64,000 nt of DNA from Bacteroidota bacterium. GTDB taxonomy: Bacteria; Bacteroidota; Bacteroidia; 2-12-FULL-35-15. The notes under the pieces are model-generated. The model was given only the letters and a program-made list of their open reading frames with translations, was not told the DNA's origin and did no database searches. The stretch covers positions 445,221-509,220 of the forward strand of contig JAOQAE010000002.1 in the NCBI GenBank assembly GCA_025963725.1, given 5' to 3'. How positions within the stretch are numbered: position 1 is the stretch's first letter; every line of letters starts with the position of its first letter. Positions 31,301 to 48,023 of the stretch are shown piece by piece. A program made the position numbers and the translations under genes.

Positions 31301-34158
31301 TCACCGGGAATGTTACGTTACCGGCTGCAGGTACCTATTACCTCGTAGTGGATACCTGGTCGACCCCGCTGAATGCAAATTATGATCTTTCCGTTTCTTC
31401 CTTCGGCTCGGGCCCTGCAAACGACCTGCCCTGCAGCGCCACTCCAATGACGCTTGGCGTTACTGAAACCGGCGACAATACCTGCAGCGGAAGCTCGGGC
31501 GAGCCGGCGGCACCGGCCTGCTGGACAGTTGGAAACAACAATTCCGTATGGTACAGCATAGTGCCTGCAGGTACCACCCTTAAAATAAGGACCAGCCTCG
31601 GAACACTAAGCAATACACAGATCGCCGTGTACAGCGGCACCTGCGGGCCAACGCTGACAATGGTTGCTTCCGCCTGTAACGACAATGGCCCTAACTGCGG
31701 ATCTACCACCGATTATGCCTCCACCTTATCGCTCACCGGCTTAACTGCCGGAAGCACCTATTACATCCGCGTAGACGGCTATACCAACCTTACGGGGACA
31801 TTCGGCATTGTTGCGATCGACGGTGCTTCCAGCTTCCCTCCTGTTGCGGGGCAGGATTGCAGCCTCGGAAATCCTGTATGTAATTCCACCATGTCGGTGA
31901 GCAATCCCGGCTACCAGGGCATCGGCTCCACCTGCGATATTCCTTCCAGCTACTGCCTCTTATCGGCTGAACGAGGATCGGCATGGTATACCTGGACCAC
32001 CAATGCGGCGGGTAACATTAACTTTGATATTGTGCCGAACGACTGGCCGGGATCACCAAGCACTACCAGCACCGATTATGACTTTGCATTATGGAAAGTA
32101 TCCGGCGGGGTTTCCTGCGCCACCATCCTTGCAGGAACATCTACGCCTGTAGCATGTAACTACAGCGGGCTTGGCGTAACCGGCCTCAGCCCTACCGGCA
32201 ATTCACCCGCTGCATACCCGGGCTTCAACGCCTCCTACGAGCCGCAGGTAGCCTGCGCGAGCGGCGACACCTGGATATTGCTGATCAACAACCACAGCAC
32301 CAGCACACAGGGCTTTACGATCAACTTTGCCACAGGCGCGGGCGGAGCACCTATCAACTATACACCTTCGCCTACTTCCATTACGTGGTCGGGCGGAACA
32401 AACACTGCCTGGAACCTTGCCAGCAACTGGGGCGGATGCGCCGTTCCTGTATGCGGCATCGATGCGGTTGTAAATCCTTTCACCACGCAGCCAAACATTA
32501 CTGCCGCAATGGGCGCGCAATACGTGAAGAACCTTACGATCAACCTGGGCGCCACCCTAACGCTGGGCGCGGGAAGCATCCTGCACATCTGCGGAAACCT
32601 GCTGAACAACGGGACCATTATCGCTTCTCCTACCTCCACGATCATTTTCGACAATGCAGCTTCGGCGCAGACCATGACGGGTAACTTTACAGGCACAAGC
32701 ACACTCGGAAACCTTACCGTTACTAAAACAGGCAGCTCGCTGTTCACGTCCGACGATGTGAGCATGAGCGGCAGCTTTACAACGTCGAACAGCACCAGCA
32801 CATTCGACAGCAATGGCAAATACATCAAGGTGGCAGGGAACTTCGTGAATGCAGCAGGAAACACCACCTTCAGCAATACCGGCACAACCGGAACGCTGGA
32901 ATTTAACGGTACTTCCGCCCAAACCTTTACGCAGGGAAGCAGCCAGCTCGACCTGAACAACGTGCTCATGAACCATACCAGCACGGGGGTTACCCTGCTT
33001 ACCGATATGAACATCAAGGCAAGCACCGGAACGCTCACGCTGACACTTGGCAAGATCACAACGGGCGCATTCAAAGTAGTGGTGAGCAACGCTTCCACCA
33101 CCTGTGTAACTGCCGGGAATACGAGCAGCTATGTGAACGGATTTCTGAGAAGGTATATCAATAACTCCACCGGCTCATTCGATTTCCCTGTGGGAACATC
33201 GAGCGCTTACCAGCGTGCGAATGTGAATTTCACGACCGCACCTACCATCACATACCTTACTGCCGATTTCCAGGTGTACGGAACCGTTCCGGGCCCTCTC
33301 GGCTCCAGCGAATGCGGATCGACGTACAACATGAATGCGCTGGACAACGGCTTCTGGAACATTGATGCAAACACTCCTAACAACAATACCGGCGTGTACA
33401 ACATGACCCTGTACAACCGCTCCTACACCAATGCGGCAAGCGGCTGGACGGTGATGGCACGCCATAACGGAAGCGCCACATGGGACATTGTGAACGGCGA
33501 CGGAAGCATGGGAACCTGCGTTGCAGGCGCTGTGACCGCAGTTGTACGAAACAACATGAAAGGCTTCTCGAGGTTTGGAACAGCGCAGTCGGACAATCCG
33601 CTGCCGATCGAGCTGATCTCGTTCACGGGCAAAAATGAAGGCGCAAAGAATAAGCTGGAATGGACTACTGCTTCAGAAGTGAACAATGATTATTTCTCGC
33701 TCGAGCATTCGGCCGACGGCAGCTCGTTTGAAACATTTGTTACGAAGGAAGGCGCAGGCAACAGCTCCGTAAGGATCAACTACGATGCCTATGACTATTC
33801 GCCATACAACGGCACCACGTATTACAGGCTGAAGCAAACGGATTACAACGGAAAATACAGCTACTCCTCCATCATTTCGATCGAGAACAAGCTTGACATG
33901 GTGGCTGTGAGCAATGTGCATCCGAACCCTACCACGGACGACCTGAACTTTGATTTCTATTCGCCGGTGAAGGGCACCGTAAGGATCATGATCATGGATT
34001 ATACGGGCAGGATAGTGGCTGATAAGGTGCAGACGGTTGAAGAAGGAAAATCGAGCCTCAACACACAGATGGGCGAGCTTGCAAAAGGCGTGTATGCCCT
34101 GAAGGTTGAATTCAGCGAAGGCGGATTTAAATCGATCACGAAAGTGGTAAAATATTAA
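28390..34158 (+). CDS. giant T9SS-secreted surface protein (1922 aa): signal peptide, three FN3-like+CUB-like modules, PPC-like beta-sandwich domains, beta-helix-like region, T9SS type A C-terminal sorting domain
   Basis: C-terminal Por/T9SS CTD (NVHPNPTTDDLNFDFY...GVYALKV); three copies of about 220 aa repeated (LNWTAP...YYWK...CPSVAGQ...LTFRFVSDGS). Confidence 0.8.
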   Translation: MKKSLLFLSLITSAFASDAQTTLIGAANNGNFENATPGTNWTIVNPGTNSLWFCGTTSKCAGTNGAYIGTAVGNNNYNTGTNRIAHIYRDVTFPAGETQITLTFDWKGQGESTYDGLKVFIGSASATPVANTAFTTTDATASQIGSTWYNLQAACGSASITITAAQAGNSAAASTRRIVFSWQNDNLSGTTPAATFDNVVLTSAIPPAPNCATYTSPANGATGICNTSASLNWTAPATGGTPTGYLLYFGTDAAATNIVNGTNIGNVLTYNPGALTASTTYYWKIVPTNGGGSASGCTIYSFTTNAGCYPQATASYTACGGTYYDSNISGNYASSENSTITFCPSVAGQKVSVLFSAFNTEATYDILTVYNGPSTASPVLASLSGTTVPSCAYTSTDAGGCLTFRFVSDGSFNYSGWTAAISCVASAPVPNCSAITSPSAGATGICSTSASLNWSAPTGCGIPTGYLLYFGTDAAATNIVNGTNIGNVLTYNPGALSSSTTYYWKIVPTSSAGSASGCAINSFTTSAGCFTQQTGSFSSCSGSYYDSSPTGNYGNSENSTITFCPSTAGQKVQVLFNTFNTESGFDILTVYDGPTTASPVLATLSGSSVPSCPYISTNAGGCLTFRFVSDGSATYSGWDASISCVASAPLPGCATLTAPVDGLTGVCNTSMSLNWTAPSGCGVVTGYLLYFGTDPAATNIINGTNIGNVLTYNPGILSASTTYYWRAVPVNSVGSATGCPIYSFTTSAGCYTQQTGTFSACGGNYYDSNPTGNYANNENSTITFCPSVAGQFVQVNFSSFVTESGLDILTVYNGPTTASPVLGTLSGNIIPCTYTSTDAGGCLTFRFVSDGSTRYAGWNALISCVSTPPGPLAGSTCANALSITLPYSATSQTTACYGNDYTNASTGSCATLYESGEDHVYAYTASGAECIGITLSNTSTNSIGYQVYSGCPGSAGASCIGSAGGATSSTLTGNVTLPAAGTYYLVVDTWSTPLNANYDLSVSSFGSGPANDLPCSATPMTLGVTETGDNTCSGSSGEPAAPACWTVGNNNSVWYSIVPAGTTLKIRTSLGTLSNTQIAVYSGTCGPTLTMVASACNDNGPNCGSTTDYASTLSLTGLTAGSTYYIRVDGYTNLTGTFGIVAIDGASSFPPVAGQDCSLGNPVCNSTMSVSNPGYQGIGSTCDIPSSYCLLSAERGSAWYTWTTNAAGNINFDIVPNDWPGSPSTTSTDYDFALWKVSGGVSCATILAGTSTPVACNYSGLGVTGLSPTGNSPAAYPGFNASYEPQVACASGDTWILLINNHSTSTQGFTINFATGAGGAPINYTPSPTSITWSGGTNTAWNLASNWGGCAVPVCGIDAVVNPFTTQPNITAAMGAQYVKNLTINLGATLTLGAGSILHICGNLLNNGTIIASPTSTIIFDNAASAQTMTGNFTGTSTLGNLTVTKTGSSLFTSDDVSMSGSFTTSNSTSTFDSNGKYIKVAGNFVNAAGNTTFSNTGTTGTLEFNGTSAQTFTQGSSQLDLNNVLMNHTSTGVTLLTDMNIKASTGTLTLTLGKITTGAFKVVVSNASTTCVTAGNTSSYVNGFLRRYINNSTGSFDFPVGTSSAYQRANVNFTTAPTITYLTADFQVYGTVPGPLGSSECGSTYNMNALDNGFWNIDANTPNNNTGVYNMTLYNRSYTNAASGWTVMARHNGSATWDIVNGDGSMGTCVAGAVTAVVRNNMKGFSRFGTAQSDNPLPIELISFTGKNEGAKNKLEWTTASEVNNDYFSLEHSADGSSFETFVTKEGAGNSSVRINYDAYDYSPYNGTTYYRLKQTDYNGKYSYSSIISIENKLDMVAVSNVHPNPTTDDLNFDFYSPVKGTVRIMIMDYTGRIVADKVQTVEEGKSSLNTQMGELAKGVYALKVEFSEGGFKSITKVVKY
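28999..30985 (+). repeat. three tandem direct repeats of about 660 bp inside the adhesin gene (FN3+CUB-like modules)
   Basis: Long identical nucleotide runs (e.g. ggaacggatgcggcggctaccaacattgtgaacggcaccaacatcgggaatgtgcttacctacaaccccggagcactt) recur at about 29100, 29790 and 30460. Confidence 0.8.
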
Positions 34159-34173
34159 GAGCAGATCAATGGC

Positions 34174-34208
34174 AGGGGCTTCACTGAATGTGAAGCCTCT
34201 TTGCTTTT
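34174..34208 (+). terminator. rho-independent terminator of the adhesin gene
   Basis: aggggcttcac-tgaat-gtgaagcctct followed by ttgctttt. Confidence 0.65.
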
Positions 34209-34306
34209 AAACGGTTCCGAAAACTAAGTTTCCGCCTTCTTTTGAATGGAGCATTTTGAAAATAAATCTTTACATTCGTAACGTTTTTACAAAACACCCT
34301 AAAAAA

Positions 34307-35362
34307 ATGCTGATCAAAAGGTGCCTTGTGTTTCTGATTTGTATTTCCGCCGGCAGCTCCTGCTTTGCGCAATTGAATGCAAGCGCAGGGAATGATAAAG
34401 TGATCTGCCCCGGATTCGGCATTGTGATCGGCGGCTCGCCTACCGCATCGGGAGGCCTCGCGCCATACACCTATTCCTGGCAGCCGACCACCGGATTAAG
34501 CGCAACCAATACATCAAATCCTACAGCCACTCCAGGTTCCAACATCAGCTATACTGTTACCGTTACCGATGATACCGGGGCGGTAAGGACGGATGTAGCC
34601 ACTGTTTTCATCAATGACATTACCTACATCACCGCCGGAAGGGATACAAGCATCTGCGTGAACAGCTTTGCAGGCATCGGTTCGGGCGGAAATAATTATC
34701 CGGGCATCACTTATTCATGGTCACCGGGAAGCACGCTCGACGATTCCACCAGCGGGGCGCCGGTATCATCACCGGGCTTATCGAGCGTTACGTATACATT
34801 AACGGCAACAACGGCTGGGTGTCCGCCGAAAACCGACCAGGTGACAGTTACCGTGATCCCGACACCTCCTATTAATGCAGGCCCGGACACAGTCATACAG
34901 GAAGGCGCCGTAGCCATCCTCCACGGTTCGGGAGGTGCAGCATACGCCTGGGGAAACACCCCGGAGATCATGTACATTTATTCTTCCAGCTGCGATGTGG
35001 AGCCGGTGGTAACCACCACGTATTACCTTTACGGAACCGATCCCACGGGGAAATGCCCGGGCTACGACAATGTTACCGTATTTGTTGAAGCGAATGATGA
35101 AGTAGTGATCTATAATACATTTACGCCGAACAACGACGGCAACAACGATACCTGGTACATCGGTAATATTCAGAAGTACCCCGACAATCAACTGGAAGTA
35201 TACAACCGCTACGGCAAGCTGGTTTATAAAACGAGCGGCTATGCGAATACCTGGGACGGACGGGTTTCGGGGGATGAGCTTCCGGCAGGGACTTATTTTT
35301 ATGACCTTAATCTCGCGCCGGGGCTTCCAAAGCATCACGGCACACTCACCATACTCAGGTAA
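34307..35362 (+). CDS. T9SS type B C-terminal domain (gliding-motility-associated CTD) protein, SprB-like small cargo
   Basis: C-terminal FTPNNDGNNDTWYI...YNRYGKLVY...WDGR motif; Ig-like repeats; signal peptide from Met at 34307 (the ORF starts at 34256). Confidence 0.75.
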   Translation: MLIKRCLVFLICISAGSSCFAQLNASAGNDKVICPGFGIVIGGSPTASGGLAPYTYSWQPTTGLSATNTSNPTATPGSNISYTVTVTDDTGAVRTDVATVFINDITYITAGRDTSICVNSFAGIGSGGNNYPGITYSWSPGSTLDDSTSGAPVSSPGLSSVTYTLTATTAGCPPKTDQVTVTVIPTPPINAGPDTVIQEGAVAILHGSGGAAYAWGNTPEIMYIYSSSCDVEPVVTTTYYLYGTDPTGKCPGYDNVTVFVEANDEVVIYNTFTPNNDGNNDTWYIGNIQKYPDNQLEVYNRYGKLVYKTSGYANTWDGRVSGDELPAGTYFYDLNLAPGLPKHHGTLTILR

Positions 35363-35365
35363 GAA

Positions 35366-36325
35366 ATGAAAAAGATACTGGCATGCTGCTATTTGCTTAT
35401 TGTGTTCGCGGGCGCTTCGCCTGCGCAGCAAATGCCATACTATTCACAGTTCCGGAGCAATCTTTACATGATCAACCCGGCGGTTACAGGAACTAAAAAG
35501 CTGGTGGATGCGCGCCTTAATTACCGCGCCCAGTGGATGGGTTATGAAGATGCGCCGCGCACGGCGAACATGAGCCTTCACAGCCGCTTCCTGAAAGGGA
35601 AGATGGGCGCCGGGCTTTACCTGATGCAGGATAAGGTAGGGCCGTTCAAGCAAATGAACCTCGGGCTGAGCTATGCCTATCACATTCGCTTTCCCGATGT
35701 GGAGCTTTCCGCAGGTGTAGCCGGGAATTTTTCAAAACAGACCCTCATCGGCGATAAAATTTACCTTCACAATTCGCAGGACCCTTCCATCAACCAGTAT
35801 GTGACCAACAGCACCTGGGCTTCGGATGCACACGCGGGGATCTACCTGTACAACGACCGCTTTCATGTTGGGCTCAGCGCCCTGCACATGATGGAAACCA
35901 CTGCTGAATTTTACAAGAAGGACACTACAAAAAAGGGATTCCTGAAATATGCCGACCACGTAAATTTTACGCTGGGCTACAATTATTCCCAGAACCCTGA
36001 TTATGTTCTGGAAAGCACCCTGTACGGGATCTACGTTGCGGGCACCCCGTTCAATCTTGATTACACGCTGCGCGTACATTACAAGCAGATGATCTTCGCG
36101 GGATTTTCAGTACGCCTGCGGGATGCGGTAGCATTGCATGTAGGCGCCACGTTCATGGAAGAATACCAGGTGAGCTATTCGTACGACCTGCTGATCGGCA
36201 AGATGAAGAACTACAGCAGCGGCTCGCATGAGATCATGATCGCGTTCAGCAGCAGCATCTTCAAGCAGAAGCGCGGAAGGGCGAACGACAAGTTCCTGCA
36301 CCAGCGCTACGGCTATATGTTCTAA
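35366..36325 (+). CDS. PorP/SprF family T9SS outer-membrane protein
   Basis: N-terminal QQMPYYSQFRSNLYMINPAVTG resembles PorP/SprF; beta-barrel-like alternation; 4-bp gap after the type-B cargo gene. Confidence 0.7.
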   Translation: MKKILACCYLLIVFAGASPAQQMPYYSQFRSNLYMINPAVTGTKKLVDARLNYRAQWMGYEDAPRTANMSLHSRFLKGKMGAGLYLMQDKVGPFKQMNLGLSYAYHIRFPDVELSAGVAGNFSKQTLIGDKIYLHNSQDPSINQYVTNSTWASDAHAGIYLYNDRFHVGLSALHMMETTAEFYKKDTTKKGFLKYADHVNFTLGYNYSQNPDYVLESTLYGIYVAGTPFNLDYTLRVHYKQMIFAGFSVRLRDAVALHVGATFMEEYQVSYSYDLLIGKMKNYSSGSHEIMIAFSSSIFKQKRGRANDKFLHQRYGYMF

Positions 36326-37135: not shown

Positions 37136-38092
37136 ATGAACGCACATGCTTCCAAAATACTCATGATCCGCCCGGTACAGTTCGGCTTCAACGAGGAAAC
37201 CGCCGGAAGCAATTCGTTTCAGAACAAGGCGGCGGAAGCAGCTGAGCAGATCCAGCAGAATGCCTTAGAAGAGTTTGATGCCTTTGCGCAGAAGCTCCGG
37301 GATGCCGGAATAGATGTTGAGCTCTTTAGCGATACGCCTCTGCCCTATACTCCCGATTCCATATTTCCCAACAACTGGATCTCCTTTCACAGCAATACGA
37401 TCGTGCTTTACCCGATGCTGGCGGAGAACAGGCGCTTTGAAAGGCGTCAGGACATCATTTCCCGCTTCAGCGACAGCGTAACAACAATGATCGACCTTTC
37501 GGAAAACGAAAGAAAGAACATTTATTTAGAAGGTACCGGCAGCATTGTTTTCGATTATGAGAACCGCATTGCCTTTGCTAATCTCTCAGCGCGTACAAAT
37601 AAAACATTATTATCGGAGCTCTGCTTCCGTCTTAATTACAGGCCTGTGGCCTTTAAGGCGGTAGACCTTGCAGGCGCCGATATTTATCATACCAATGTGC
37701 TGATGTGCATCGGGAAAAAATTTGCAGTGCTTTGCAGCGAATGCATCCCGGATGCGGAAGAGCGTAAACTGCTGATCAGCGAGATTGAAAGAACCGGCAG
37801 GGAGATCATTTTCATCAGCTATGCGCAGATGAATTCCTTTGCAGGAAATATGTATGAGCTGTTCAATGATAAAAAGGAAAGCATCATTGTGATGAGTGAA
37901 CAGGCTTATAAAGCATTAACAAAAGAGCAGGTTACCCGGCTTGAAAAATACGGCAGCATCCTGCATTCACCGCTTTATACCATTGAAAAGCATGGCGGCG
38001 GCAGCGCAAGGTGCATGATAGCGGATGTGAGGTGGCAGCCGGCGGGATTTATTGATGATGTATTTGAGTTTGTGAGTGATGTTTTTTTGTAA
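37136..38092 (+). CDS. amidinotransferase/arginine deiminase-superfamily hydrolase (CtlX-like)
   Basis: N-terminal KILMIRPVQFGFNEET and C-terminal GGGSARCM catalytic-Cys motif typical of the superfamily. Confidence 0.55.
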   Translation: MNAHASKILMIRPVQFGFNEETAGSNSFQNKAAEAAEQIQQNALEEFDAFAQKLRDAGIDVELFSDTPLPYTPDSIFPNNWISFHSNTIVLYPMLAENRRFERRQDIISRFSDSVTTMIDLSENERKNIYLEGTGSIVFDYENRIAFANLSARTNKTLLSELCFRLNYRPVAFKAVDLAGADIYHTNVLMCIGKKFAVLCSECIPDAEERKLLISEIERTGREIIFISYAQMNSFAGNMYELFNDKKESIIVMSEQAYKALTKEQVTRLEKYGSILHSPLYTIEKHGGGSARCMIADVRWQPAGFIDDVFEFVSDVFL

Positions 38093-38400
38093 TGGGGAGT
38101 TAGTAGCTGGTAGTTCGGAGATCGGAGATGGTTAACCTGATGATAGAAGTTTAAAATCAAGATTGGAATTATAAAACAGTGCAGTAACAATTCCCCTCTT
38201 GAGAGGGGTTAGGGGTGTGTCTATCGGAATCGCTCGACAAGCGCAGCCACACAGATTCGTAAATTCGTACAGATTCGCGATCCGTACACAAATTCGTAAA
38301 TTCGAAGAATGAGATTGCTTCGTCGTACCTCCTCGCAATGACGTTCCCGGAATGGCAATTAGAACAATTCGTATATTCGTAAAAATTAGTATTCGTAGTT
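38093..38400. repeat. composite intergenic repeat block: G-rich tract, GACGGTTAAC-like motif, GC hairpin CCCCTCTTGAGAGGGGTTAGGGGTGTGT (38193-38220), ATTCGTAA arrays and the 32-bp element (38311-38342)
   Basis: The same module order recurs at 52259-52488 and partly at 50829-51133 and 53053-53286. Confidence 0.8.
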
Positions 38401-38892
38401 ATGGCTTCATTCGATATTGTAAACAAAGTAGATGCGCAATTGCTGGACAATGCCATCAATGTGGCGCGCAAGGAGATCCTGAACAGGTTTGACTTTCACG
38501 GCTCCAAAAGCGAGATCAATTATGACAAGAAAAACCTGAGCCTGCAGATCCTCACGGAAAATGAGATGCGGCTGGAGGCGATCACCGATGCGATCCGCTC
38601 GAGGATGATCAAGCAGCACCTGAACCCGCTTTGCCTCGATATGGGCAAGGAAACCGCAGCATCGGGAAATATGATCCGGAAAGAGATAAAAGTGCGTGAA
38701 GGGATCGACAAGGAGGTTGCGAAGAAGATCGTGAAGGATATAAAAGATTCAAAGCTGAAGGTACAGGCTTCCATCATGGAGGACCAGGTACGGGTTACAG
38801 CCAAAAAGATCGACGACCTGCAGGCGGTGATCTCACTCATGAGACAAGGCAGCTATGACCTGCCGCTGCAGTTCGTGAATATGAAGAGCTGA
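38401..38892 (+). CDS. yajQ: YajQ family cyclic-di-GMP-binding protein (UPF0234)
   Basis: MASFDIVNKVD...RFDFHGSKSEI N-terminal signature; 163 aa. Confidence 0.8.
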   Translation: MASFDIVNKVDAQLLDNAINVARKEILNRFDFHGSKSEINYDKKNLSLQILTENEMRLEAITDAIRSRMIKQHLNPLCLDMGKETAASGNMIRKEIKVREGIDKEVAKKIVKDIKDSKLKVQASIMEDQVRVTAKKIDDLQAVISLMRQGSYDLPLQFVNMKS

Positions 38893-38898
38893 GCGGTA

Positions 38899-39300
38899 TT
38901 ACTGGCACTGGGCGCCTGCAGAAAGCCAGTAAGGCGGAAGATCCGACTTGCCTGTGACATTCGCTTTCAATACATTGTTGATCCAGATCTTACAGGTATA
39001 CACATGCGAAGTATCATGATCAAACAGAAAAATATTTACATCCGAATTCACATCCCCGCAAAAGTTTGTGCTGTCGGTAAGTGTAAGTGAGGGAGAAATG
39101 AAATTGTGAATATAATCTATCATGTTAATATTAAGATGCACCGAATCGGGGACGGTGGTGCCCGACACCTCGTATTTTACATTCCAGCATCCCTGCGGCC
39201 ATCCAGGGGTTCCCGTACTTGTCCCTGTTTTTAACACAGGATCTTTTTTGCAGGCTGAAAACAGAACAAAAGTAAAAAGCACTATCCCGATTTGTTTCAT
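38899..39300 (-). CDS. hypothetical lipoprotein (133 aa)
   Basis: Lipoprotein signal MKQIGIVLFTFVLFSAC; last gene of the membrane operon. Confidence 0.5.
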   Translation of the reverse strand: MKQIGIVLFTFVLFSACKKDPVLKTGTSTGTPGWPQGCWNVKYEVSGTTVPDSVHLNINMIDYIHNFISPSLTLTDSTNFCGDVNSDVNIFLFDHDTSHVYTCKIWINNVLKANVTGKSDLPPYWLSAGAQCQ

Positions 39301-39321
39301 GACTGAATTTTTTTTTAATTG

Positions 39322-40428
39322 TTATTGTCCAGGCTCTCTCTTCGCGCTCAATAATTTTCTATCCTCAGCTGAGAGATACTGTCTCGCGATCCTGTTCTCC
39401 GGCCTGCGATCGAAGGTGTAAAGCACCAGCAGAAAAAACCACTCCAGGGGCTTCATTAATACGTAAACAGCATCCGCAACCAGCTTGTTATTAAATAAGA
39501 CGTAGTGACGGTGTACAAGGTTGCCTACCTTGTTATAATTATGCCGGACCACTTTATGAATCTTCGGGATCTTCTGCTCCATCAGCTCCTCGAATGCATT
39601 GGAAACAAGCAGCTGCCTGTTGCAGATGATCTTCCCTCCACCCCTTTCACCGTAACGTTCGGGCTTTACAAATCCTTTATGGCCGTTGGCAGCAACCGAG
39701 CATAAGAAATGTCCGCCGCATTCCACGTTATCGCACATATAATCCAGCTGTGAAAATCCATGCTTGTAGGTATCTGTAAATGCCCGAACAATGGAATCGG
39801 GCTTTTGTCCGAACAGCAGCAGCACAGCTGTAACAATCACCATTAACGGCAGGCAGAGCACCAGCAGTACCGGCACCTTCAGGAAAGGATGGAGCTTTAA
39901 CAATTTCCAGGCGAGCCTTACGATCATGCCGCCGGAAGCAGGATCCATATCCCTGCTGTAGAGCATAAACTGCCTGTGATTCTCAACAAGCCGGATGGTA
40001 AAAAGGAAAATAATGGGCATGTTCCATACCGTGGCAACAGGAAATCCCACTTGGTAACAGATCAGAGCGTTGAGCGGAAGAGCGATCAGCAGGAAGCAAT
40101 TGCAGAGCACTTCGAGCACAGGGCTGCCTACACTTTTCTTAAAGCCGGAATAAAAGTAAAAGACCACACACAGGAAGATGAGCACATAAATAGTGAGGCG
40201 GTGCTCTGGCGAAAACACTGCGCTTTCGCTGCAGCAGTCGTTGCTGGCTTCATCGAGAAAGAGCAGGCAGAGAGAAGGATAAACAATAACGGCAGCAAAA
40301 TCCAGGAAGGCCTGCATTTTTTTGTTGTAAAACCTTTTTCCTTTAAAGAGAAAGTATATAAAGTCAATTGTGATCATAAGGCCGGGGATCCAAAAGCAGC
40401 TGGTGATCAGCCAAATGGTTATTTCCAT
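39322..40428 (-). CDS. hypothetical membrane protein with C-terminal soluble Cys/His-rich domain
   Basis: Five or six TM helices, then CDNVECGGHFLCSVAANGH and a C-terminal domain; family unknown. Confidence 0.5.
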   Translation of the reverse strand: MEITIWLITSCFWIPGLMITIDFIYFLFKGKRFYNKKMQAFLDFAAVIVYPSLCLLFLDEASNDCCSESAVFSPEHRLTIYVLIFLCVVFYFYSGFKKSVGSPVLEVLCNCFLLIALPLNALICYQVGFPVATVWNMPIIFLFTIRLVENHRQFMLYSRDMDPASGGMIVRLAWKLLKLHPFLKVPVLLVLCLPLMVIVTAVLLLFGQKPDSIVRAFTDTYKHGFSQLDYMCDNVECGGHFLCSVAANGHKGFVKPERYGERGGGKIICNRQLLVSNAFEELMEQKIPKIHKVVRHNYNKVGNLVHRHYVLFNNKLVADAVYVLMKPLEWFFLLVLYTFDRRPENRIARQYLSAEDRKLLSAKREPGQ

Positions 40429-40430
40429 TA

Positions 40431-40799
40431 TCAGAAAAATTTGGGATAAAAAATAAAAATGCCGATCAGCGCGGCGCCTGCAGCGGCAATAAGCACAGCG
40501 GCAGCGGAAACATCCTTCACCTTTTTAACCTGCGGATGAATATTGGGTGAAACAATATCCGAGAGAAATTCGATAGCCGTATTGAACATCTCCGCCATGA
40601 ACACCAGCACGATCGCGGAAACGATCCAGCACCATTCGCCCGAAGAAAGCCCGGTGTACCAGCCCAGGCAAAGCGCAGTCAGCGCGGCGGTCAAATGCAG
40701 CCAGGCATTGTGCTGTGTTGAAAAGAAGGTACGGAGCCCTTCGAGCGCGAAGCCAAAGCTCTTTATGCGTTCTGCGATGCTAAATCTTTTTTTGTCCAT
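40431..40799 (-). CDS. dgkA: diacylglycerol kinase family protein (DgkA/undecaprenol kinase)
   Basis: 122 aa, three TM; DgkA signature around EMFNTAIE and a GxS-rich C-terminal helix. Confidence 0.75.
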   Translation of the reverse strand: MDKKRFSIAERIKSFGFALEGLRTFFSTQHNAWLHLTAALTALCLGWYTGLSSGEWCWIVSAIVLVFMAEMFNTAIEFLSDIVSPNIHPQVKKVKDVSAAAVLIAAAGAALIGIFIFYPKFF

Positions 40800-41448
40800 G
40801 GCTTTCTGTATTAAAATTCCTGATAAGCGCAGCTAATGTACAATATGCCGCTATTAAAAATAAGGAAAAGAAAAACGTTACGCCAACCATCCTTGTATTT
40901 TGAGTGGGATGCAGCAGCATATTGAAAATATCGGCGAACAGCGCGACCGGATTGCTGATGATGTCCCAGCTGTTCCAGCGGGGATAGCGGCCCAGGTAGA
41001 TCCCGAAGCTGCAGAGGATCATGAGGAAAACGGTAAATGCGTTTACGATCACGGAATTTAAATAAGAGCTAAGAAAACGCCTGACCTCGAAGAGCGACGC
41101 AAAGCCCAGCAGCAGTCCATTCCAGGCGAATGACAGGATCAGCACGAGGTCGAACCACAGCGGGATGCCTTCCTTTGCACGCAGATGGAACAGGTCGGTG
41201 ACGATGTACGGCGAGTTGGGAAAGAACAGCAGCCAGCCTCCGAACAGCAGCAGCATTAAGTATTTCGGCCTCTTGTTCTCCTTCGCTTCTGCGAGAAGCA
41301 CGGAGCAGAGAAATGGGATCCATGCAAGAAAGAGGTTCCATACAAGGAACACGTAGAAGAGATGTCCGCTCCATTGCATGCGCAGGATCAGTAAAAGAAT
41401 ACATAAGGCAGAGGAGATTGCCATTGTTTTAACGAGGCGGTTTATCAT
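40780..41448 (-). CDS. DUF1361-like polytopic membrane protein
   Basis: Six TM; PNSPYIVTDLFHL motif recalled from DUF1361; overlaps dgkA by 20 nt. Confidence 0.45.
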   Translation of the reverse strand: MINRLVKTMAISSALCILLLILRMQWSGHLFYVFLVWNLFLAWIPFLCSVLLAEAKENKRPKYLMLLLFGGWLLFFPNSPYIVTDLFHLRAKEGIPLWFDLVLILSFAWNGLLLGFASLFEVRRFLSSYLNSVIVNAFTVFLMILCSFGIYLGRYPRWNSWDIISNPVALFADIFNMLLHPTQNTRMVGVTFFFSLFLIAAYCTLAALIRNFNTESHGQKKI

Positions 41449-41458
41449 ATTTGCTTTT

Positions 41459-42172
41459 TTATTTTTGTTTTTTATACCTTCTGTAAATTGAAAAGACGGA
41501 GATGAGGATCAGGCCCTGCCCGGCCCAGAACAAGCCCCAGTTGAAGTGGACCGGCACATACTGCCGCACTTCATCGAACATGTTCTTGTTGCTCGATAAG
41601 GTCCATACGCCAATATCGTCGCCATAATTGGAAACATAAATGATGTAATCCCACATGAAGGAAACAATGGCGGTGATGCTTCCGAAGATCAGTAAAAGCC
41701 ATTCGTGAAAGCTGATGAACACCTTCTTTCCCTGCTCCTGGAAGTACACCACCACGAACGTAAGGAGGATCATGGAAAGGGAAACGAGGCATGGCGCTAT
41801 CACCGGGCCAACCCAGGGCACGGGGATCAAAAAGAGAATATCCCATGTGAAAAGTGATTCCGGCCAGCAGAGCAGCACTTTCAGGAACACATAATAAAAG
41901 AGATCCCAGATGGCGAAGGAATACAAAAAGAAAACGAAGCGCTGCAACGGATTTTTTCCGCACATCACTCCTGCTCCTATCAGCATGATGATGGTGGCCG
42001 CTTCGCGCCAGAACTCGGTAACGGCAATATCGCGGGTAACGGGAATGAGCGGGAATTTAAATCCGCCGGGATAGTACAGCTTGCGCAGGTAAACAACCAC
42101 GGAGGTTTCGAGGTAGCCCATAGCGATGCTGAAGATAGTGAGCCAGAGAATTGTTTTGAGGATCGGTTTCAT
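41459..42172 (-). CDS. hypothetical polytopic membrane protein (237 aa)
   Basis: Seven or eight hydrophobic segments; no recognised motif. Confidence 0.5.
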   Translation of the reverse strand: MKPILKTILWLTIFSIAMGYLETSVVVYLRKLYYPGGFKFPLIPVTRDIAVTEFWREAATIIMLIGAGVMCGKNPLQRFVFFLYSFAIWDLFYYVFLKVLLCWPESLFTWDILFLIPVPWVGPVIAPCLVSLSMILLTFVVVYFQEQGKKVFISFHEWLLLIFGSITAIVSFMWDYIIYVSNYGDDIGVWTLSSNKNMFDEVRQYVPVHFNWGLFWAGQGLILISVFSIYRRYKKQK

Positions 42173-42179
42173 AAGCAGT

Positions 42180-44120
42180 TTAGTTAAGTACGTTGCCTTC
42201 TATTTTGACCTGCGGATAAGTATCGCGAAGCAGGTTAAGCCCTTTTTGAGTGATCAGTCCGATTTTCAAATGCCTGAGCTTTTTAAGATCCGAAATAACG
42301 GCAAAGCTCCTGATCCTGTTGTTGCCTTCCATGTTAAGCTCTTCAAGGTTAGGAAGCTTGCGCAGGGAGAAAATATTTACGAGGTCGTTATTGGAAATAT
42401 CGAGGCTTCGCAATTCTTCCATTGCCGGTAAGCGGGTGATGTCCCTGGCCGAGCCATTGATCAACACAAGGCTTCTTAGTTTTGGAAAATAGTGCAGCTC
42501 ATAACAATCGGCGAAAGCAGCACCATTCAGCTCCAGCGAATCGAGGTTGGAAAGATCACGGAGGCTGAGCCCTGAAAAATCCGTTCCTAAGAATTTAAGG
42601 CTCTTTACCTTGTGCTGCTCATTCATTTCAAGGAGCTTCCGGTATGTTTCAGAATCCGAAATATTCATGGAACGCCAGTCTTTGTTATGCATTCTATCCA
42701 TAAAGCCTGACAGCTTCGACGATAATTCTGCCTGGAAATCACGTTCGTCATACAGCGTTCCACCGCTTATATTGCGGTAATTATAATCAGTATCATTCAT
42801 TGTTTCATGCTTTATGGAATCGTCCAAAGACAGCAATTGCGGGAGATTAACATCGGAGAGCGACAGCAGGTAAAATTTATCAAGCGCCTTATCCCTGCTC
42901 AGCGACCTGTTGATATTGAAATTGGTAACCAGCAGATCCCAGTTCACGAAACAGCTGATCACCAGCAGGCCGTAGAACAGCCAGCTGTTTGAACGGAAAA
43001 GGAACCAGTTCGTTTTTGAGCGCATGATCTTCACAAAGGTTGTAACAAGCCCGATGAGCGCCAGCAGCAGCCACACGTACACGCCGATGCGCTTATAGGT
43101 AAGGCTGTATTCATTCACATACAGGCTGTTGCGGAACGCTGTGGAGATGATCATAAAAGCGTTCTGGATGATCCAGGCATACGCAAGCATCTTGATGGTT
43201 TTATTTTTCTCATAAAAATTCACCCTTCCGCGGAAGTAAAACATGATGATGAGAATGGCAATGATGATGGACAGGATCAGCAGGCCTGTGCCCTGGTGCA
43301 CAAAAACAGAATAGCTCATGCCTTTGGGAAGCGTACCATCGCCCCAGAGATAATTCAGGTCGAGCATATTCACCAGCAACAGCAGTCCGTTCAGCAATAT
43401 CAGCAGAATAACGCCGGAGCGCACTTCGTTCTCGATCCCGAGATTGCGCGCAAACCAGGAATCGGTGCGGAGCATGCCCGGGGAAAGGTCATTCGGGATC
43501 GACCTGTCTTTTGCGGCCATTGCCGGAATGGTTTTGTGGTACATGAATCCGTACATGAGGAAGGTTCCTCCAAGCGTAAAGAAGACCCAGCCTGCGGAAA
43601 TAAAATCGAGGTTGATGTTCTTGGTGAATTCGTCGAACAGCGGATTGGAGCCTTTGTATAAAAAGAAAAACACCAGCACAACAGTGAACGGCACAATATA
43701 GATCATGAAGCGTAGAAAAGAAGAATTGCCGGAAGCCGCAGCCACTCTTTTTCCCGCGCGCTCCACGGCATCGAGGATCATGAACACAAAAGATGCGCAG
43801 GTGGAATAAGCGGAGAAGAAAAGTGAAGTGATCACCGAAGTTCCCGGCCCCACGCTGAATGCCGACAGAAGCATTAAGGAGATAATGTTTGCCGTGAGCG
43901 ACAAGCCATTGCCGATGTAGAATACGCAGAATGACGATGCAAGGGCACCTGCCGCTGCAATGAGCCAGGGCTTGTTCCTTTGGAGTGTCCTGTCTTTCAG
44001 CAGCAGCAGGAAAACCAGCAACGCGGAGAAAATAAGGAAATTGATCCCTGTTCCCTGCCTGTAAAATAAAAAGCTGTATGCGAATACCGATGACAGCAAG
44101 ATCCAATCATTCTTTTTCAT
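42180..44120 (-). CDS. polytopic membrane protein with C-terminal leucine-rich-repeat domain
   Basis: About 480-aa multi-TM N-terminal region, then LRR units (LxxLxxLxLxxN, e.g. LRSLDISNNDLVNIFSLRKLPNLEELNMEGN); Met at 44120 overlaps the upstream stop (ATGA). Confidence 0.6.
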   Translation of the reverse strand: MKKNDWILLSSVFAYSFLFYRQGTGINFLIFSALLVFLLLLKDRTLQRNKPWLIAAAGALASSFCVFYIGNGLSLTANIISLMLLSAFSVGPGTSVITSLFFSAYSTCASFVFMILDAVERAGKRVAAASGNSSFLRFMIYIVPFTVVLVFFFLYKGSNPLFDEFTKNINLDFISAGWVFFTLGGTFLMYGFMYHKTIPAMAAKDRSIPNDLSPGMLRTDSWFARNLGIENEVRSGVILLILLNGLLLLVNMLDLNYLWGDGTLPKGMSYSVFVHQGTGLLILSIIIAILIIMFYFRGRVNFYEKNKTIKMLAYAWIIQNAFMIISTAFRNSLYVNEYSLTYKRIGVYVWLLLALIGLVTTFVKIMRSKTNWFLFRSNSWLFYGLLVISCFVNWDLLVTNFNINRSLSRDKALDKFYLLSLSDVNLPQLLSLDDSIKHETMNDTDYNYRNISGGTLYDERDFQAELSSKLSGFMDRMHNKDWRSMNISDSETYRKLLEMNEQHKVKSLKFLGTDFSGLSLRDLSNLDSLELNGAAFADCYELHYFPKLRSLVLINGSARDITRLPAMEELRSLDISNNDLVNIFSLRKLPNLEELNMEGNNRIRSFAVISDLKKLRHLKIGLITQKGLNLLRDTYPQVKIEGNVLN

Positions 44121-44620
44121 AGTGATGATGTATTTAAGTTTAAGAGTTCCAATTGTTTGATATGCCTGTAGCAGAAATACAGCGGGAAGAAGCCAATGAC
44201 GCCGAAAGAGCAATCGATCAGCTGCCAGTAAACGGGAATGTGGCGGATAGGGCCGGCGATCATAGCCAATGGAAAGATCATTACACAGGCGATCATCCCG
44301 AACTGGATGCACCAGATGTTCCTTACGGGATCACGGAGCGGGCCGATGAACACGACCGCGATCACAAGATGCGCAAAGGCCAGCCAGTCGGTGCCATACG
44401 ATAAATACGGATAAGTGTAATTGGTGCTCCGCACGGAAAGATAAATGGTCTGCAGCCAGTTCTGGATCACATGCGGCAATGCCGAAGAGTGAGCGGTAAG
44501 GAATGCCAGCTCCGCTTCGATGGGGAAAGCAGTGATGCCGCTGAGAATGAGAAATACAATGAAGAGGATGATCCAGTTGCGGATCCGCCTTTTAAGCTGT
44601 TGTTCGCTGAGGGTTTTCAT
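44117..44620 (-). CDS. hypothetical membrane protein (167 aa)
   Basis: Four TM segments; translationally coupled to the downstream gene. Confidence 0.5.
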   Translation of the reverse strand: MKTLSEQQLKRRIRNWIILFIVFLILSGITAFPIEAELAFLTAHSSALPHVIQNWLQTIYLSVRSTNYTYPYLSYGTDWLAFAHLVIAVVFIGPLRDPVRNIWCIQFGMIACVMIFPLAMIAGPIRHIPVYWQLIDCSFGVIGFFPLYFCYRHIKQLELLNLNTSSL

Positions 44621-44632
44621 ATACTTTATTTT

Positions 44633-45121
44633 TTATAATGTTTGTTTTGCAATGCAATAGGCTTCCCGGAGCCATGCTGTGTTATGCAGCACCGCGCTGC
44701 TGTAATCCATCTCTGCAAATTCCCCCGATCTTTTTCCTTTCCTGAACGCGTTGTAAAAATCTTTCCAGTGATCGGGCATGAGGAAAATGCAAAGCACTAC
44801 CGTCATGAACACGGGAAATGTATAATGGCGGTTGCCGAGGAACCAGAACTGCATGCAGGCTTCGCCCTGTTCATCCATTTCGTAGCCGAGCAGGATGTGC
44901 TTGCAGTCGTGCCGCACATAGCCAGGAGCCAGCCGGAAGCCCTTCTTCTGAAGATAGTTTGCGAGCTCGTTGCCAAGCGTATGCTCCGGCAGTGCAAGCA
45001 GCTGTTCCATGGTGTATGGAAAGGGCCGGCTGTGCCTTACGCGAAGCATTAAAGGCAATGCTATTTTGTGCGTGAGCAGCTCCAGCAATTGTGATCTTTT
45101 ATTTTTCAGTATGCTGATCAT
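44633..45121 (-). CDS. Coq4-like protein (HDxxH-x11-E zinc-binding motif)
   Basis: HDCKHILLGYEMDEQGE fits the COQ4 family HDxxHx11E signature exactly; about 160 aa. Confidence 0.5.
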   Translation of the reverse strand: MISILKNKRSQLLELLTHKIALPLMLRVRHSRPFPYTMEQLLALPEHTLGNELANYLQKKGFRLAPGYVRHDCKHILLGYEMDEQGEACMQFWFLGNRHYTFPVFMTVVLCIFLMPDHWKDFYNAFRKGKRSGEFAEMDYSSAVLHNTAWLREAYCIAKQTL

Positions 45122-45852
45122 AGGTCGAATGATGAATAAGGCTTTGAAAAAATAAATCCGGAAGATTCCCTGAAAGCTTTGATGATGCTGTCGGCATCCT
45201 GTCCAAGGCTGTATAACAAAGCAACCTGCAGCGCAACTGCGATCGCAAGCAGCGCGGAATAAACCGCGAGCCTTGGCAGCAGGGGCAGCTGGACCACCTG
45301 TAATGGCAAAGGAATAAAGCCGAGCTCTTCGCGGTATGGAAGCAGCTCAGCCGGAACAGCGGCCGTTTGATTGTAGAAATAAAATTCGCGGAGCAGCAGG
45401 AAAAAAGCGACCAGCGGGCAAAGCAGCTCGAAGCCTTGAAAAGGAAAAACGATCCCAAGCACGAAGTAGTTCAGGAAATGAATGCTGCAGGCAAAGCAGA
45501 GGATGATGCCCTGCAGCATGCCTACGGAGAAAAGAATGCGCAAAAAAGGATTGCGTGTTCCGGAAGTTAAGCGGGCGCACCAGAAGGAAGCAGATGAAAC
45601 CATCACGAGCAGGATAATGCTGATCACATGGCGCTTTGAGAATGGCATGTCAAACCCGTACGCATCGAAGCGGCAAAACCCGATCGCAGGCGCTATGAGC
45701 GTAAAAACAAAATCGGCGGTGAGCATGGAAGCCTGGCCGTACCCGCTTAACTGATTATCGTTCCTCTTCATTGTACGGATGGCTGTGACGATCACATACA
45801 GGATGTACAAAATGTAAGGGATGCCGAGAAGGAGCAAAAAAAAGAAGATCAT
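45118..45852 (-). CDS. hypothetical polytopic membrane protein (244 aa), first gene of the operon
   Basis: Six or seven TM; 4-nt overlap with the Coq4-like gene. Confidence 0.5.
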   Translation of the reverse strand: MIFFFLLLLGIPYILYILYVIVTAIRTMKRNDNQLSGYGQASMLTADFVFTLIAPAIGFCRFDAYGFDMPFSKRHVISIILLVMVSSASFWCARLTSGTRNPFLRILFSVGMLQGIILCFACSIHFLNYFVLGIVFPFQGFELLCPLVAFFLLLREFYFYNQTAAVPAELLPYREELGFIPLPLQVVQLPLLPRLAVYSALLAIAVALQVALLYSLGQDADSIIKAFRESSGFIFSKPYSSFDL

Positions 45853-45921
45853 ATTTTTATTTTTTTAATTAAAAGTACTTTGTGTTTCAAAGTTAAAGCA
45901 CAAAAAAAAGGTGCATCATCA

Positions 45922-46221
45922 TTAATCCCTTTGCTTCAGCAGCTTCTCTAATGCATCCAGGTGCTCGTTGAATGCCTTCTTCCCTGCCTTTGTTACCGAG
46001 TATGTTGTGTTCGGCTTTTTGCCGATGAACTGTTTCTGCACTTCAATGTATTCCAGCTTCTCCAGAGCGGAAATATGCGAAGCGAGATTACCATCGGTAA
46101 TGTCGAGCATTTCCTTCATGGAGCTGAATTCCACCTTGTCGTTCACCATGAGGATGCTCATGATGCCCAACCGGATGCGGTTTTCAAATGCCTTGTTTAA
46201 ATGTTGAATATAATTTTTCAA
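45922..46221 (-). CDS. winged-helix transcriptional regulator (HTH_34/ArsR-like)
   Basis: 99 aa; pattern ...LGIMSILMVNDKVEFSSMKEMLDITDGNLASHISALEKLEYIE... typical of small wHTH regulators. Confidence 0.55.
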   Translation of the reverse strand: MKNYIQHLNKAFENRIRLGIMSILMVNDKVEFSSMKEMLDITDGNLASHISALEKLEYIEVQKQFIGKKPNTTYSVTKAGKKAFNEHLDALEKLLKQRD

Positions 46222-46356
46222 GCTGCTAATTACGAATCTATACGAATTTACGAATTGTACTAATTATCATTCTCACTGGATGTCATCCTGAGCGAAGCGA
46301 ATGGATCTTTCCAAACAACCTCCCCGAACTCCTAACGTCTCCCTCCTATCTAACAG

Positions 46357-47001
46357 CTACCCTCTCTCATATTTAAAATACATCACTGCGCCATATATAA
46401 TGTGCAGAATACCGAATCCGACTGCCCAGAAATACAGTCCGTAGCCAATGTACAGCGAAGCCGTTAAGCCAAGAATGATCTCGCAGATCCCAAGATAGCG
46501 AATATCATTGAATGTATATTTACTTGCGTTGATCAGCGACAAACCATAAAAGATGAGCGTCGCCGGAGCGACGAGCCCGATATCGCCGTGATACAGCATA
46601 ATAAGGCAGAACAATCCGCCGGTGCCAAGCGGGATCGCGAGGTTGATCAGCAGCCGCTGCCCGGTGCTGTCCCAGATCCTGAGCCCTTTTTTTCTCGAAT
46701 TGCGCATTGTTAAAAGAGTGCCTACCAGCAGGGAAGCGATCAGCACGCCAGCCGCAACAGAGAACAGGTAAATGATCAGCTCGTTCGCTACTTCCACCCT
46801 GCCGTGGATATCCATCTGAAGCATCGAGCGGTAGTTTTCGGTATAAGAGCCGATCTTCACATACGCGAGGTACGCTCCTATCAGTGCAAACACACCGGCA
46901 AAAACACCGGAAAGGCCGCTCAGGGAAATAAAACGGGAAGAGCGCTCCATCATGGAGCGGATGTCGGACAGTGCCTGTAAATGTTCTTTTTGATCTGCCA
47001 T
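46357..47001 (-). CDS. hypothetical membrane protein
   Basis: Five TM; start taken at MADQKEH (the ORF extends to 47064). Confidence 0.45.
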   Translation of the reverse strand: MADQKEHLQALSDIRSMMERSSRFISLSGLSGVFAGVFALIGAYLAYVKIGSYTENYRSMLQMDIHGRVEVANELIIYLFSVAAGVLIASLLVGTLLTMRNSRKKGLRIWDSTGQRLLINLAIPLGTGGLFCLIMLYHGDIGLVAPATLIFYGLSLINASKYTFNDIRYLGICEIILGLTASLYIGYGLYFWAVGFGILHIIYGAVMYFKYERG

Positions 47002-47207
47002 AGTTAAGGAGCTATTAAAAGTACTTTGTAACGCAAAGTAATGGTAAATTATTGTAAGCGCCAAAAGAAAATGAAATTATTTTTATGACTGTCGGAAAAA
47101 CTGCTCTTATTTAAGGATCGCAATGATGTTCAAATTTATCCTTCTGAAACTCAGGGAGGCGCTGTGGGCGATTATTAAATCCGGCAGAAAAACCTTATAC
47201 TTGTGGT

Positions 47208-47993
47208 ATGGTAAACCTGGCCATTTATACCTTTATAACAGTCCACCTGATCGATGTGGTGGACGTGCTATTGGTGGCGCTGCTCATTTACCAGCTTTAC
47301 TACCTGATCAAAGGAACTGCAGCCATCAATATCTTTATCGGCATCCTCCTCTTCTACCTTTTATGGATCCTTGTAAAAGCCCTGAACATGCAGCTTTTCG
47401 GCAGCATCCTCGGGAAGTTCATCGATGTGGGCTTCATTGCCCTGCTCATCGTTTTCCAGCAGGAGCTGCGGCGCTTCCTGCTTTTCATCGGCACTTCCGA
47501 TATTTTCACCAAAGGGAAGATCTTCGATTTCAAATGGAACATGAACCCCACGCATAAAATGGACATCAACGCCATTGTGAAGGCCTGCAAGAACATGAGC
47601 GAAAGCAAAACCGGCGCGATCATTATCATTACCAGGAACAACGAGCTGAAATTCTACGCAAATACGGGAGATGCCATTGAAGCAAAAGTATCGGTGCGGA
47701 TGATCGAAAGCATTTTTTATAAGAACTCCCCGCTGCACGACGGTGCATTGATCATCTCCGGTAACGAGATCGTGGCTGCCCGCTGTGTGCTGCCTGTTAC
47801 CGAGAACAATGAGTTTCCGGCACACCTGGGCATGCGGCACCGGGCTGCGGTAGGGATCACTGAAAATTCGGATGCGATCGCCGTGGTGGTTTCCGAACAA
47901 ACGGGGGAAATTTCCTTTTCCAAAGAAGGAGAGCTGAAGCATGGCGCTACGCCGGAACGCCTGCGCGAAATGCTTGAAAAAGAGTTTGCGTAG
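47208..47993 (+). CDS. cdaA: diadenylate cyclase CdaA (c-di-AMP synthase)
   Basis: N-terminal TM helices; DAC domain motifs (DGALIISGNEIVAARCVLP, RHRAAVGITE, SEQTGEIS). Confidence 0.85.
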   Translation: MVNLAIYTFITVHLIDVVDVLLVALLIYQLYYLIKGTAAINIFIGILLFYLLWILVKALNMQLFGSILGKFIDVGFIALLIVFQQELRRFLLFIGTSDIFTKGKIFDFKWNMNPTHKMDINAIVKACKNMSESKTGAIIIITRNNELKFYANTGDAIEAKVSVRMIESIFYKNSPLHDGALIISGNEIVAARCVLPVTENNEFPAHLGMRHRAAVGITENSDAIAVVVSEQTGEISFSKEGELKHGATPERLREMLEKEFA

Positions 47994-48023
47994 TACGGAT
48001 AACAATATTGTAATCTGCGCGTT

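Follow-up and report, generated by a model that had tools for sequence, protein, structure and literature searches.

The stretch of Bacteroidota DNA analyzed here (64,000 nucleotides of contig JAOQAE010000002.1, hereafter the window) contains at 38899–47039 a gene cluster that we read, with a probability of roughly one half, as one instance of a Bacteroidota regulon, in which two transcription units are governed by a common operator and the controlled cargo serves the upkeep of the cell envelope. The first unit would consist of a membrane-protein gene followed by a small winged-helix regulator gene, denoted MEM and REG, respectively, and the second of nine cargo genes, denoted g1–g9 (Table 1). 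The element ACTTTG-N5-CAAAGTACTTTT stands before each of the two.

The full 23-bp element is present in exactly two copies in the 64 kb, one before MEM and the other before g1–g9, and the 16-nt string ACAAAGTACTTTTAAT was likewise found exactly twice, at 45868–45883 before the g1 ATG and at 47014–47029 before the MEM ATG. The element is composed of three copies of one half-site in the order direct, inverted, direct, and the centres of the inverted half-sites are 11 bp apart, which is compatible with binding of a winged-helix dimer. Related loci were gathered in two ways: one genome per GTDB species was scanned with g5, which gave 80 loci, and, so that anchoring through g5 would not bias the sample, metagenome contigs were searched with an alignment of divergent MEM sequences. 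The arrangement site–MEM–REG–site–cargo recurs in approximately 100 loci from other genomes and metagenomes, and the cultured carriers are Rhodocytophaga aerolata and Xanthocytophaga flavus. Over 1.26 Mb of related loci, the core AAAGTACTTT was counted 43 times against an expectation of approximately 1.2, and nearly all of them are located either immediately in front of MEM or immediately downstream of REG, where the first cargo gene follows. Within the g5-gathered set the site is present in all 24 loci that carry MEM and in only 2 of the 58 loci that lack it; one of these two (L036) has the site directly before a detached g5, and the other (L051), in which neither a MEM nor a REG gene was called, has it before g3–g5. 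The metagenome MEM loci exhibited a site before MEM in 68 of 74 cases and a site after REG in 40 of 49. The two positions are each described by a consensus, namely tTaACTTTG.A.t.CAAAGTACTTTTaa for the sites before MEM (class 1) and TTTTTTTg..tatt.ACTTTGAAAT.CAAAGTACTTTTaAa for those after REG (class 2).

REG directly follows MEM in 23 of 24 genome loci and in at least 58 of 78 metagenome loci. The REG protein matched PF13601 (HTH_34) with 108.3 bits against a cut-off of 27 over residues 16–95 of 99, and its nearest solved relative is PH1061 (1UB9, E = 2e-10). Its long form beginning at TTG is backed by homologues that have ATG at the same position. ArsR-type matches of REG stayed below threshold (HTH_5, 18 bits against a cut-off of 22; NF033788, 20 bits against 55). 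MEM is 100% identical to the protein JWO09_465 of the source metagenome-assembled genome (MAG), and its best-conserved part is a cytoplasmic N-terminal helix, HLxALxDIRxMMERSSRFISLSGLSG; conserved polar residues are also located inside the membrane (D111, C132, D166, E174, and H200). A Pfam search with MEM and 41 homologues gave no family at E ≤ 1 except noise, and the AlphaFold2 (AF2) model of MEM, with a mean confidence (pLDDT) of 77.8, has no real match in the PDB. The putative recognition-helix region of REG, TDGNLASH, is invariant, as are the outer half-site bases of the operator-like element, of which the central dinucleotide alone drifts. Covariation between REG and the operator was sought and gave no signal, because the recognition helix does not vary. 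An earlier reading of this DNA, referred to below as the first-pass annotation, had placed a winged helix-turn-helix regulator gene simply upstream of the cargo run and co-directional with it. Its position and direction were borne out, but REG forms a unit of its own together with MEM, and neither the MEM gene nor the duplicated 16-nt string had been recorded there. The spacer between MEM and REG in the window is lineage-specific, since the two genes overlap or sit less than 20 nt apart in many other genomes. Just before the REG TTG, the three direct ATTCGTA copies in this spacer read AATTCGTA-AATTCGTA-TAGATTCGTA.

The location of the element relative to the promoters was evaluated with the −7 box of Bacteroidota sigma-A, whose consensus TAnnTTTG lies at −12 to −5 (PMC9723704). 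The first half-site with its 5′ TA/TT fits this box, and transcription starts are therefore predicted near 47029 and 45883, leaving leaders of approximately 28 and 31 nt. With the start so placed, the element would reach from about −10 to +13, a location of the repressor type. A generic promoter and terminator scan was uninformative, as it gave 11 promoter-like sites against 12.3 expected. The possibility that the site acts as an RNA hairpin was set aside, as the half-sites are invariant without covariation and the predicted start falls inside the spacer. An Rfam search of 38000–48000 returned no RNA family.

The cargo unit of the window extends on the minus strand from 45852 to 38899 as nine co-directional open reading frames (ORFs), whose junctions measure, in order, −4, 12, −4, 7, 10, −20, 2, and 21 nt, both 4-nt overlaps being ATGA; REG is 69 nt distant from g1. 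The first-pass annotation had correctly described this tight run with its ATGA overlaps and short gaps, but its count of ten genes is reached only when REG is included. The annotation of the source MAG, a soil-type Bacteroidota, holds the same nine genes under the consecutive tags JWO09_455 to JWO09_463 and labels all of them hypothetical except DgkA. Tight junctions of this kind (two ATGA and one 20-nt overlap) suggest coupled translation, which would suit an assembly of the nine proteins into a single stable membrane machine of many subunits, for example a transporter or a secretion device. The sets of putative subunits differ, however, among close relatives, in which DUF1361 is missing (L083 and L084) or both g8 and g9 are missing (L001 and L002), and the Pfam and NCBIfam scans of the run matched no ATPase or other energizing component and no transporter family. 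We consider such a machine highly improbable.

The cargo is rich in membrane proteins and changes from locus to locus. Among the 80 g5-gathered loci, g5 lies downstream of MEM and REG in 24, in which the cargo includes g4 (20 loci), g3 (17), g6 (12), g7 (10), DUF6688 (6–8), and g2 (5); the order and content of these arrays vary, and additional small proteins with 3–4 transmembrane (TM) helices are found in them. The 71 MEM-gathered loci contain CreD (25), DUF4153 (20), g5 (10), DUF1361 (10), g3 (9), g2 (8), DgkA (8), and DUF6688 (6). CreD (PF06123), with matches of up to 476 bits, is hence the commonest cargo family elsewhere; a CreD-like ORF was sought in the 64-kb window and none was found. 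MpaB/Lcp oxygenase, DUF2809, VIT-domain membrane proteins, HD-PycTM, and metallophosphoesterase occur occasionally. Three or more TM helices are predicted for 61% of the cargo genes and for 11% of the flanking genes in the metagenome loci. When the cargo ORFs without a class were surveyed against Pfam, the outcome was heterogeneous and in part ran on into unrelated genes. The neighborhood is thus conserved well beyond close relatives, for which the first-pass annotation had advised a check, though its cargo is variable. Two loci deserve separate mention. At 14887–16173 of L094, the cargo includes an HD-domain protein fused to a PycTM (Pycsar effector) membrane domain, which is an odd companion for envelope proteins; and at 11700–20051 of L096, a metagenome contig, MEM–REG is directly followed not by cargo genes but by a long CRISPR array, with the repeat ATTTCAATTCCAACATGGTGCGATTAAAAG and a period of approximately 65.

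This variability bears on the dedicated isoprenoid- or lipid-handling module that the first-pass annotation had suggested, in which the nine genes would encode one pathway, with a polyprenyl-binding Coq4-like protein, a DgkA that phosphorylates undecaprenol or diacylglycerol, and membrane enzymes acting in sequence. Such a pathway would accommodate the relation of g2 to the Nostoc Coq4-like structure 3MSQ with its metal motif kept, the family membership of g7 as a DgkA lipid kinase, and the enzyme-like, invariant charged intramembrane residues of g5 and g3. It would also accommodate the location of g2 beside MpaB/Lcp-type oxygenases (L094 and L109), a ferritin-like protein (L001 and L003), and a metallophosphoesterase (L129). 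The arrays, however, exhibit no fixed set, as g2 is present in 5/24 and 8/71 of them and DgkA in 10/24 and 8/71. Gene order also varies, g5 being placed before or after g4, and arrays with CreD only are common. In 56 of the 80 g5-gathered loci, mostly of Bacteroidales, g5 stands as a lone gene among housekeeping genes. Moreover, the cargo families are mutually unrelated: hhalign detected no relationship among MEM, REG, DUF6688, g2, g3, g4, g5, g6, and g7, nor between CreD and the eight of these families other than REG. With gene content and order changing so freely, the single-pathway proposal was not supported, and we regard it as improbable.

These observations led us to propose the following mechanism for the regulon. 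A REG dimer would occupy the inverted half-sites and repress both promoters, its own included. MEM would be made in step with REG, sense a disturbance in or at the inner membrane, and lift the repression. In the simplest form of relief, the cytoplasmic N-terminal helix of MEM would hold REG at the membrane, following the logic of SdpI/SdpR, in which a membrane protein sequesters a small winged-helix autorepressor (PMC2910880). The induced cargo would constitute a lineage-variable inner-membrane toolkit for envelope and membrane upkeep, represented here by two DUF6688 proteins, a Coq4-like metal protein, g3, a DUF4153–leucine-rich repeat (LRR) protein, g5, a DUF1361 protein, a DgkA lipid kinase, and a lipoprotein. 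Envelope upkeep is inferred as the output because envelope integrity is compromised in S. maltophilia lacking CreD (PMC4689548) and because a DgkA lipid kinase is included in the cargo. The gene structure, the families, the duplicated site with its linkage to MEM–REG and its fixed placement, and the variability of the cargo are observed, whereas binding by REG, repression, control by MEM, and the envelope output belong to the proposal.

Several points weigh against the regulon as proposed. MEM could be ordinary cargo and not a sensor, the site could serve another factor or an unusual promoter, and REG could be an activator. The transcription start is a prediction. The first locus set was gathered through g5, and the g5 frequencies in it are biased. 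The envelope reading depends on CreD, one characterized family that is absent from the window, and on DgkA. MEM is not of the SdpI family, the ArsR matches of REG are sub-threshold, and sdpRI has its two genes in the opposite order. If the first of these points are taken together, one obtains a different link between REG and the site, in which REG activates or another factor reads the site and MEM is the first cargo gene, devoid of a signaling role. The present sequence evidence does not give the sign of regulation, and the intramembrane polar residues of MEM could equally mark an enzyme or a transporter. Against this link, the site overlaps the predicted −7 box and start, as is typical of repressors, the order MEM-then-REG (with ORFs that often overlap) is kept across the family when other genes vary, and the part of MEM conserved best is a cytoplasmic helix. 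We thus assign only a small probability to an activator or a foreign factor at this site.

The proposed repressor–membrane protein pair can be compared with known systems. SdpR/SdpI of B. subtilis likewise combines a small winged-helix repressor with a co-transcribed polytopic protein of approximately 210 residues in an autoregulated unit and employs repressor capture (PMC2910880), which is what we propose for REG and MEM. The present pair differs in that MEM has no match to the SdpI Pfam family, REG belongs to HTH_34 instead of ArsR/SdpR, the membrane gene comes first, the site is repeated at a second promoter ahead of a large variable cargo operon, and no toxin partner is known. This design raises the question of whether the cargo is an immunity or tolerance array against membrane-acting toxins or antimicrobials, for which MEM–REG would be a toxin sensor of the SdpI/SdpR type. 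The sdpRI-like, putatively autoregulated pairing of a small winged-helix protein with a ~210-residue membrane protein and the variable cargo of mostly polytopic membrane proteins agree with this idea, and tolerance of E. coli to colicin E2 is linked to increased expression of creD. The cargo families are, however, strongly conserved (70–94% identity for g5 across its 120 best-scoring homologues), and the locus, in contrast to immunity islands that evolve fast, occupies a syntenic chromosomal position. No composition anomaly was found, no toxin gene was seen nearby, and MEM lies outside the SdpI family. In addition, a PADLOC scan, which covered REG and nine other proteins (g7 being outside the scan), found no defence system; it gave only a generic winged-helix similarity for REG and none for the nine. 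An immunity array hence appears unlikely.

The regulon also resembles the CreBC–CreD system of Proteobacteria, the output of which includes CreD, an inner-membrane protein for envelope integrity (PMC4689548), as do 25 of the 71 related arrays. Here, the controller would be MEM, an HTH_34 protein, and a palindromic site and not a two-component system, and the window, devoid of CreD, has DUF6688, DUF4153, g5, DUF1361, DgkA, and others in its place. No two-component Pfam domain was found in the genes adjoining the cluster of the window, a statement that applies to the window, as the related loci were not systematically screened for CreB/CreC. In BlaI/BlaR1 and MecI/MecR1, a membrane sensor gene is similarly followed by a small winged-helix repressor gene, with autoregulation and the same operator on a second unit. 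In contrast to these sensors, MEM lacks both an M56 peptidase and a penicillin-binding domain; REG is outside Penicillinase_R, and there is no hint of proteolysis.

Envelope-stress sensing is poorly understood in Bacteroidota compared with Proteobacteria and Firmicutes. One may tentatively speculate that MEM–REG is an unrecognized, phylum-wide envelope-stress device of Bacteroidota, with an HTH_34 repressor controlled directly by MEM at the membrane, and that its variable cargo (CreD, DUF4153, the g5 and g3 families, DUF1361, DUF6688, and Coq4-like proteins) supplies new inner-membrane enzymes for repair or remodeling; we hold this wider view as possible but less probable than the regulon itself. 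The membrane-linked winged-helix autoregulatory layout is known from sdpRI and blaR1–blaI, and the unit found here is built from uncharacterized families and is widespread in Bacteroidota. The literature searched contained nothing relevant on these DUFs, HTH_34, the site motif, or CreD in Bacteroidota; it gave no described function for DUF4153, DUF1361, or DUF6688, and DUF4153 was mentioned only where it was removed from the Cache clan. The view of the first-pass annotation that this is an uncharacterized envelope or inner-membrane system was thereby strengthened, as the families are not linked in that literature and MEM and g5 have no solved relative. The MEM–REG unit offers a clear, testable DNA site with two conserved partners and is present in cultured carriers. 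It places CreD under a common control with no fewer than six membrane-protein families whose function is unknown, which makes a joint assignment of their role feasible. If MEM–REG is indeed an envelope-stress device of this kind, CreD and several large DUF families would gain their first regulatory handle. The compact pair of putative operator and repressor might also be turned into a genetic tool for this phylum, whose promoters are unusual.

Table 1. Coordinates and assignments of the genes and sites of the cluster in the window.
Feature	Position	Strand	Description
Operator-like site 1 (class 1)	47017–47039	-	ACTTTGCGTTACAAAGTACTTTT; 15 nt before MEM ATG
MEM	46357–47001	-	214-aa six-helix membrane protein, no Pfam family; proposed signal-input partner of REG
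MEM/REG spacer	46222–46356	-	135 nt; three direct ATTCGTA copies at 46231–46255
REG	45922–46221	-	99-aa HTH_34 winged-helix protein, TTG start; proposed repressor of both promoters
Operator-like site 2 (class 2)	45871–45893	-	ACTTTGAAACACAAAGTACTTTT; after T-run; 18 nt before g1 ATG; candidate promoter-operator of g1–g9
g1	45118–45852	-	244 aa, polytopic; DUF6688 N-terminal domain only (PF20394, 42 bits); tag JWO09_463
g2	44633–45121	-	162 aa, soluble, Coq4-like; HDxxH-x11-E metal motif
g3	44117–44620	-	167 aa, ~4 TM helices, no family
g4	42180–44120	-	646 aa; DUF4153 (~10 TM helices) and C-terminal internalin-type LRR
g5	41459–42172	-	237 aa, 7 TM helices, no family
g6	40780–41448	-	222 aa, DUF1361 membrane protein (PF07099, 165 bits)
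g7	40431–40799	-	122 aa, predicted DgkA-family lipid kinase; 20-nt overlap with g6
g8	39322–40428	-	368 aa; DUF6688 N-domain (PF20394, 70 bits) and Cys-rich DUF6688_C (PF23543, 151 bits)
g9	38899–39300	-	133 aa, putative lipoprotein, lineage-specific; last gene; tag JWO09_455

Among the cargo proteins of this window, the four that the first-pass annotation had named from the letters, namely a Coq4-like HDxxHx11E protein, DgkA, a membrane protein with a C-terminal LRR domain, and a lipoprotein, were all recovered. Its six family-less polytopic proteins were not: there are five further polytopic proteins, of which g1 and g8 belong to DUF6688 and g6 to DUF1361, so that only g3 and g5 are without a Pfam family. 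The start of g4 is the ATG at 44120, overlapping the g3 stop as ATGA. This protein matched DUF4153 (PF13687) with 153 bits and LRR_4 with 37.9 bits, and its LRR aligned with internalin A at E = 2e-15 over residues 520–622. Only 22 of 45 g4 homologues carry the LRR, and a crude positive-inside count gave no clear orientation for the membrane side of this domain. The paralogue of g1 is g8. The N-terminus of g9 is lipoprotein-like (...LFSAC), and a search for its homologues in loci L001–L082 found none.

The g2 protein matched the Pfam Coq4 family (PF05019) with 18.8 bits, below the gathering cut-off of 22.9, and only residues 37–62 were matched. A profile of 44 members of the g2 family did match the Nostoc Coq4-like structure 3MSQ (E = 8.5e-6), the match spanning only residues 73–189 of 3MSQ. 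Residues H71, D72, H75, and E87, which are invariant in the 44 members, are aligned with the part of 3MSQ that carries the motif. Thus g2 shares with Coq4 and the Nostoc Alr8543-type protein (3MSQ) a PEGTLG-like segment and the HDxxH-x11-E motif, but at 162 residues it is shorter than both the 3MSQ chain (224 residues) and the Coq4 profile (221 positions), and it is an occasional cargo and not a core part. Only 60 homologues of g2 were found. The quinone of Bacteroidota is menaquinone and not ubiquinone. A soluble protein of 277–290 residues adjoins g2 in the two closest relatives (L001, 6275–7108; L003, 6314–7186). It is encoded just upstream of g2, in L003 between g1 and g2, and has no counterpart in the window; two ExxH motifs and a weak Rubrerythrin match give it a ferritin/di-iron-like appearance.

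For g7, the match to PF01219 (DAGK_prokar) reached 109.9 bits against a cut-off of 22.3, three TM helices were predicted, and E. coli DgkA structures were matched at E = 1e-7. We take E28, E34, E69, N72, E76, D80, K94, and D95 to be the catalytic and binding residues of E. coli DgkA. In the HMMER alignment, g7 retains the last six of these, and E28 and E34 align to Q29 and H35, which could be either an alignment shift or a real change of the active site. In family, in its match to DgkA structures, and in these six residues g7 resembles E. coli DgkA and the Gram-positive undecaprenol kinase of the same family, and it differs from the former at the two aligned positions; its substrate is not readable from sequence, and DgkA is found in some arrays only.

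The g5 family comprises more than 7,900 homologues in 1,613 clusters at 50% identity and has no Pfam model; many of its 120 best-scoring members are from MAGs. E22, E53, R56, E57, W89, and D90 are invariant inside the membrane, and the AF2 model of g5 (pLDDT 82.7) gave no real fold match to solved structures in the PDB. Where g5 stands alone, it recurs beside rplM–rpsI–tsf and an ABC ATPase or beside mutS2 (L017, L034, L050, L064, L079, and other Bacteroidales), which suggests a housekeeping role for the family. The g3 family has the invariant, enzyme-like motifs SGxTAFPxxxE, YGTDWLAFAH, and IDCSFG, with no relative in Pfam, lax thresholds included, or in the PDB. The Pfam scan assigned no family to g3, g5, or g9; lax-threshold scans of the g5, MEM, and g3 families returned noise only, and the NCBIfam scan added no assignment.

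On its two sides the cluster adjoins genes of other kinds. The end of g9 is 6 nt from a convergent yajQ. Divergent from MEM, cdaA (47208–47993, plus strand) encodes a cyclic di-AMP synthase with DAC and CdaA_N domains. Its adjacency to MEM looks like synteny rather than a functional link, because it is restricted to close relatives (L001–L004 and L083–L085). Farther along the window, at 28390–36325 on the plus strand, an ORF of 1,922 residues lies within a stretch of raised G+C content (0.53–0.55 against approximately 0.47 elsewhere), and after this ORF come a type IX secretion cargo protein of the CHU_C kind and PorP/SprF.

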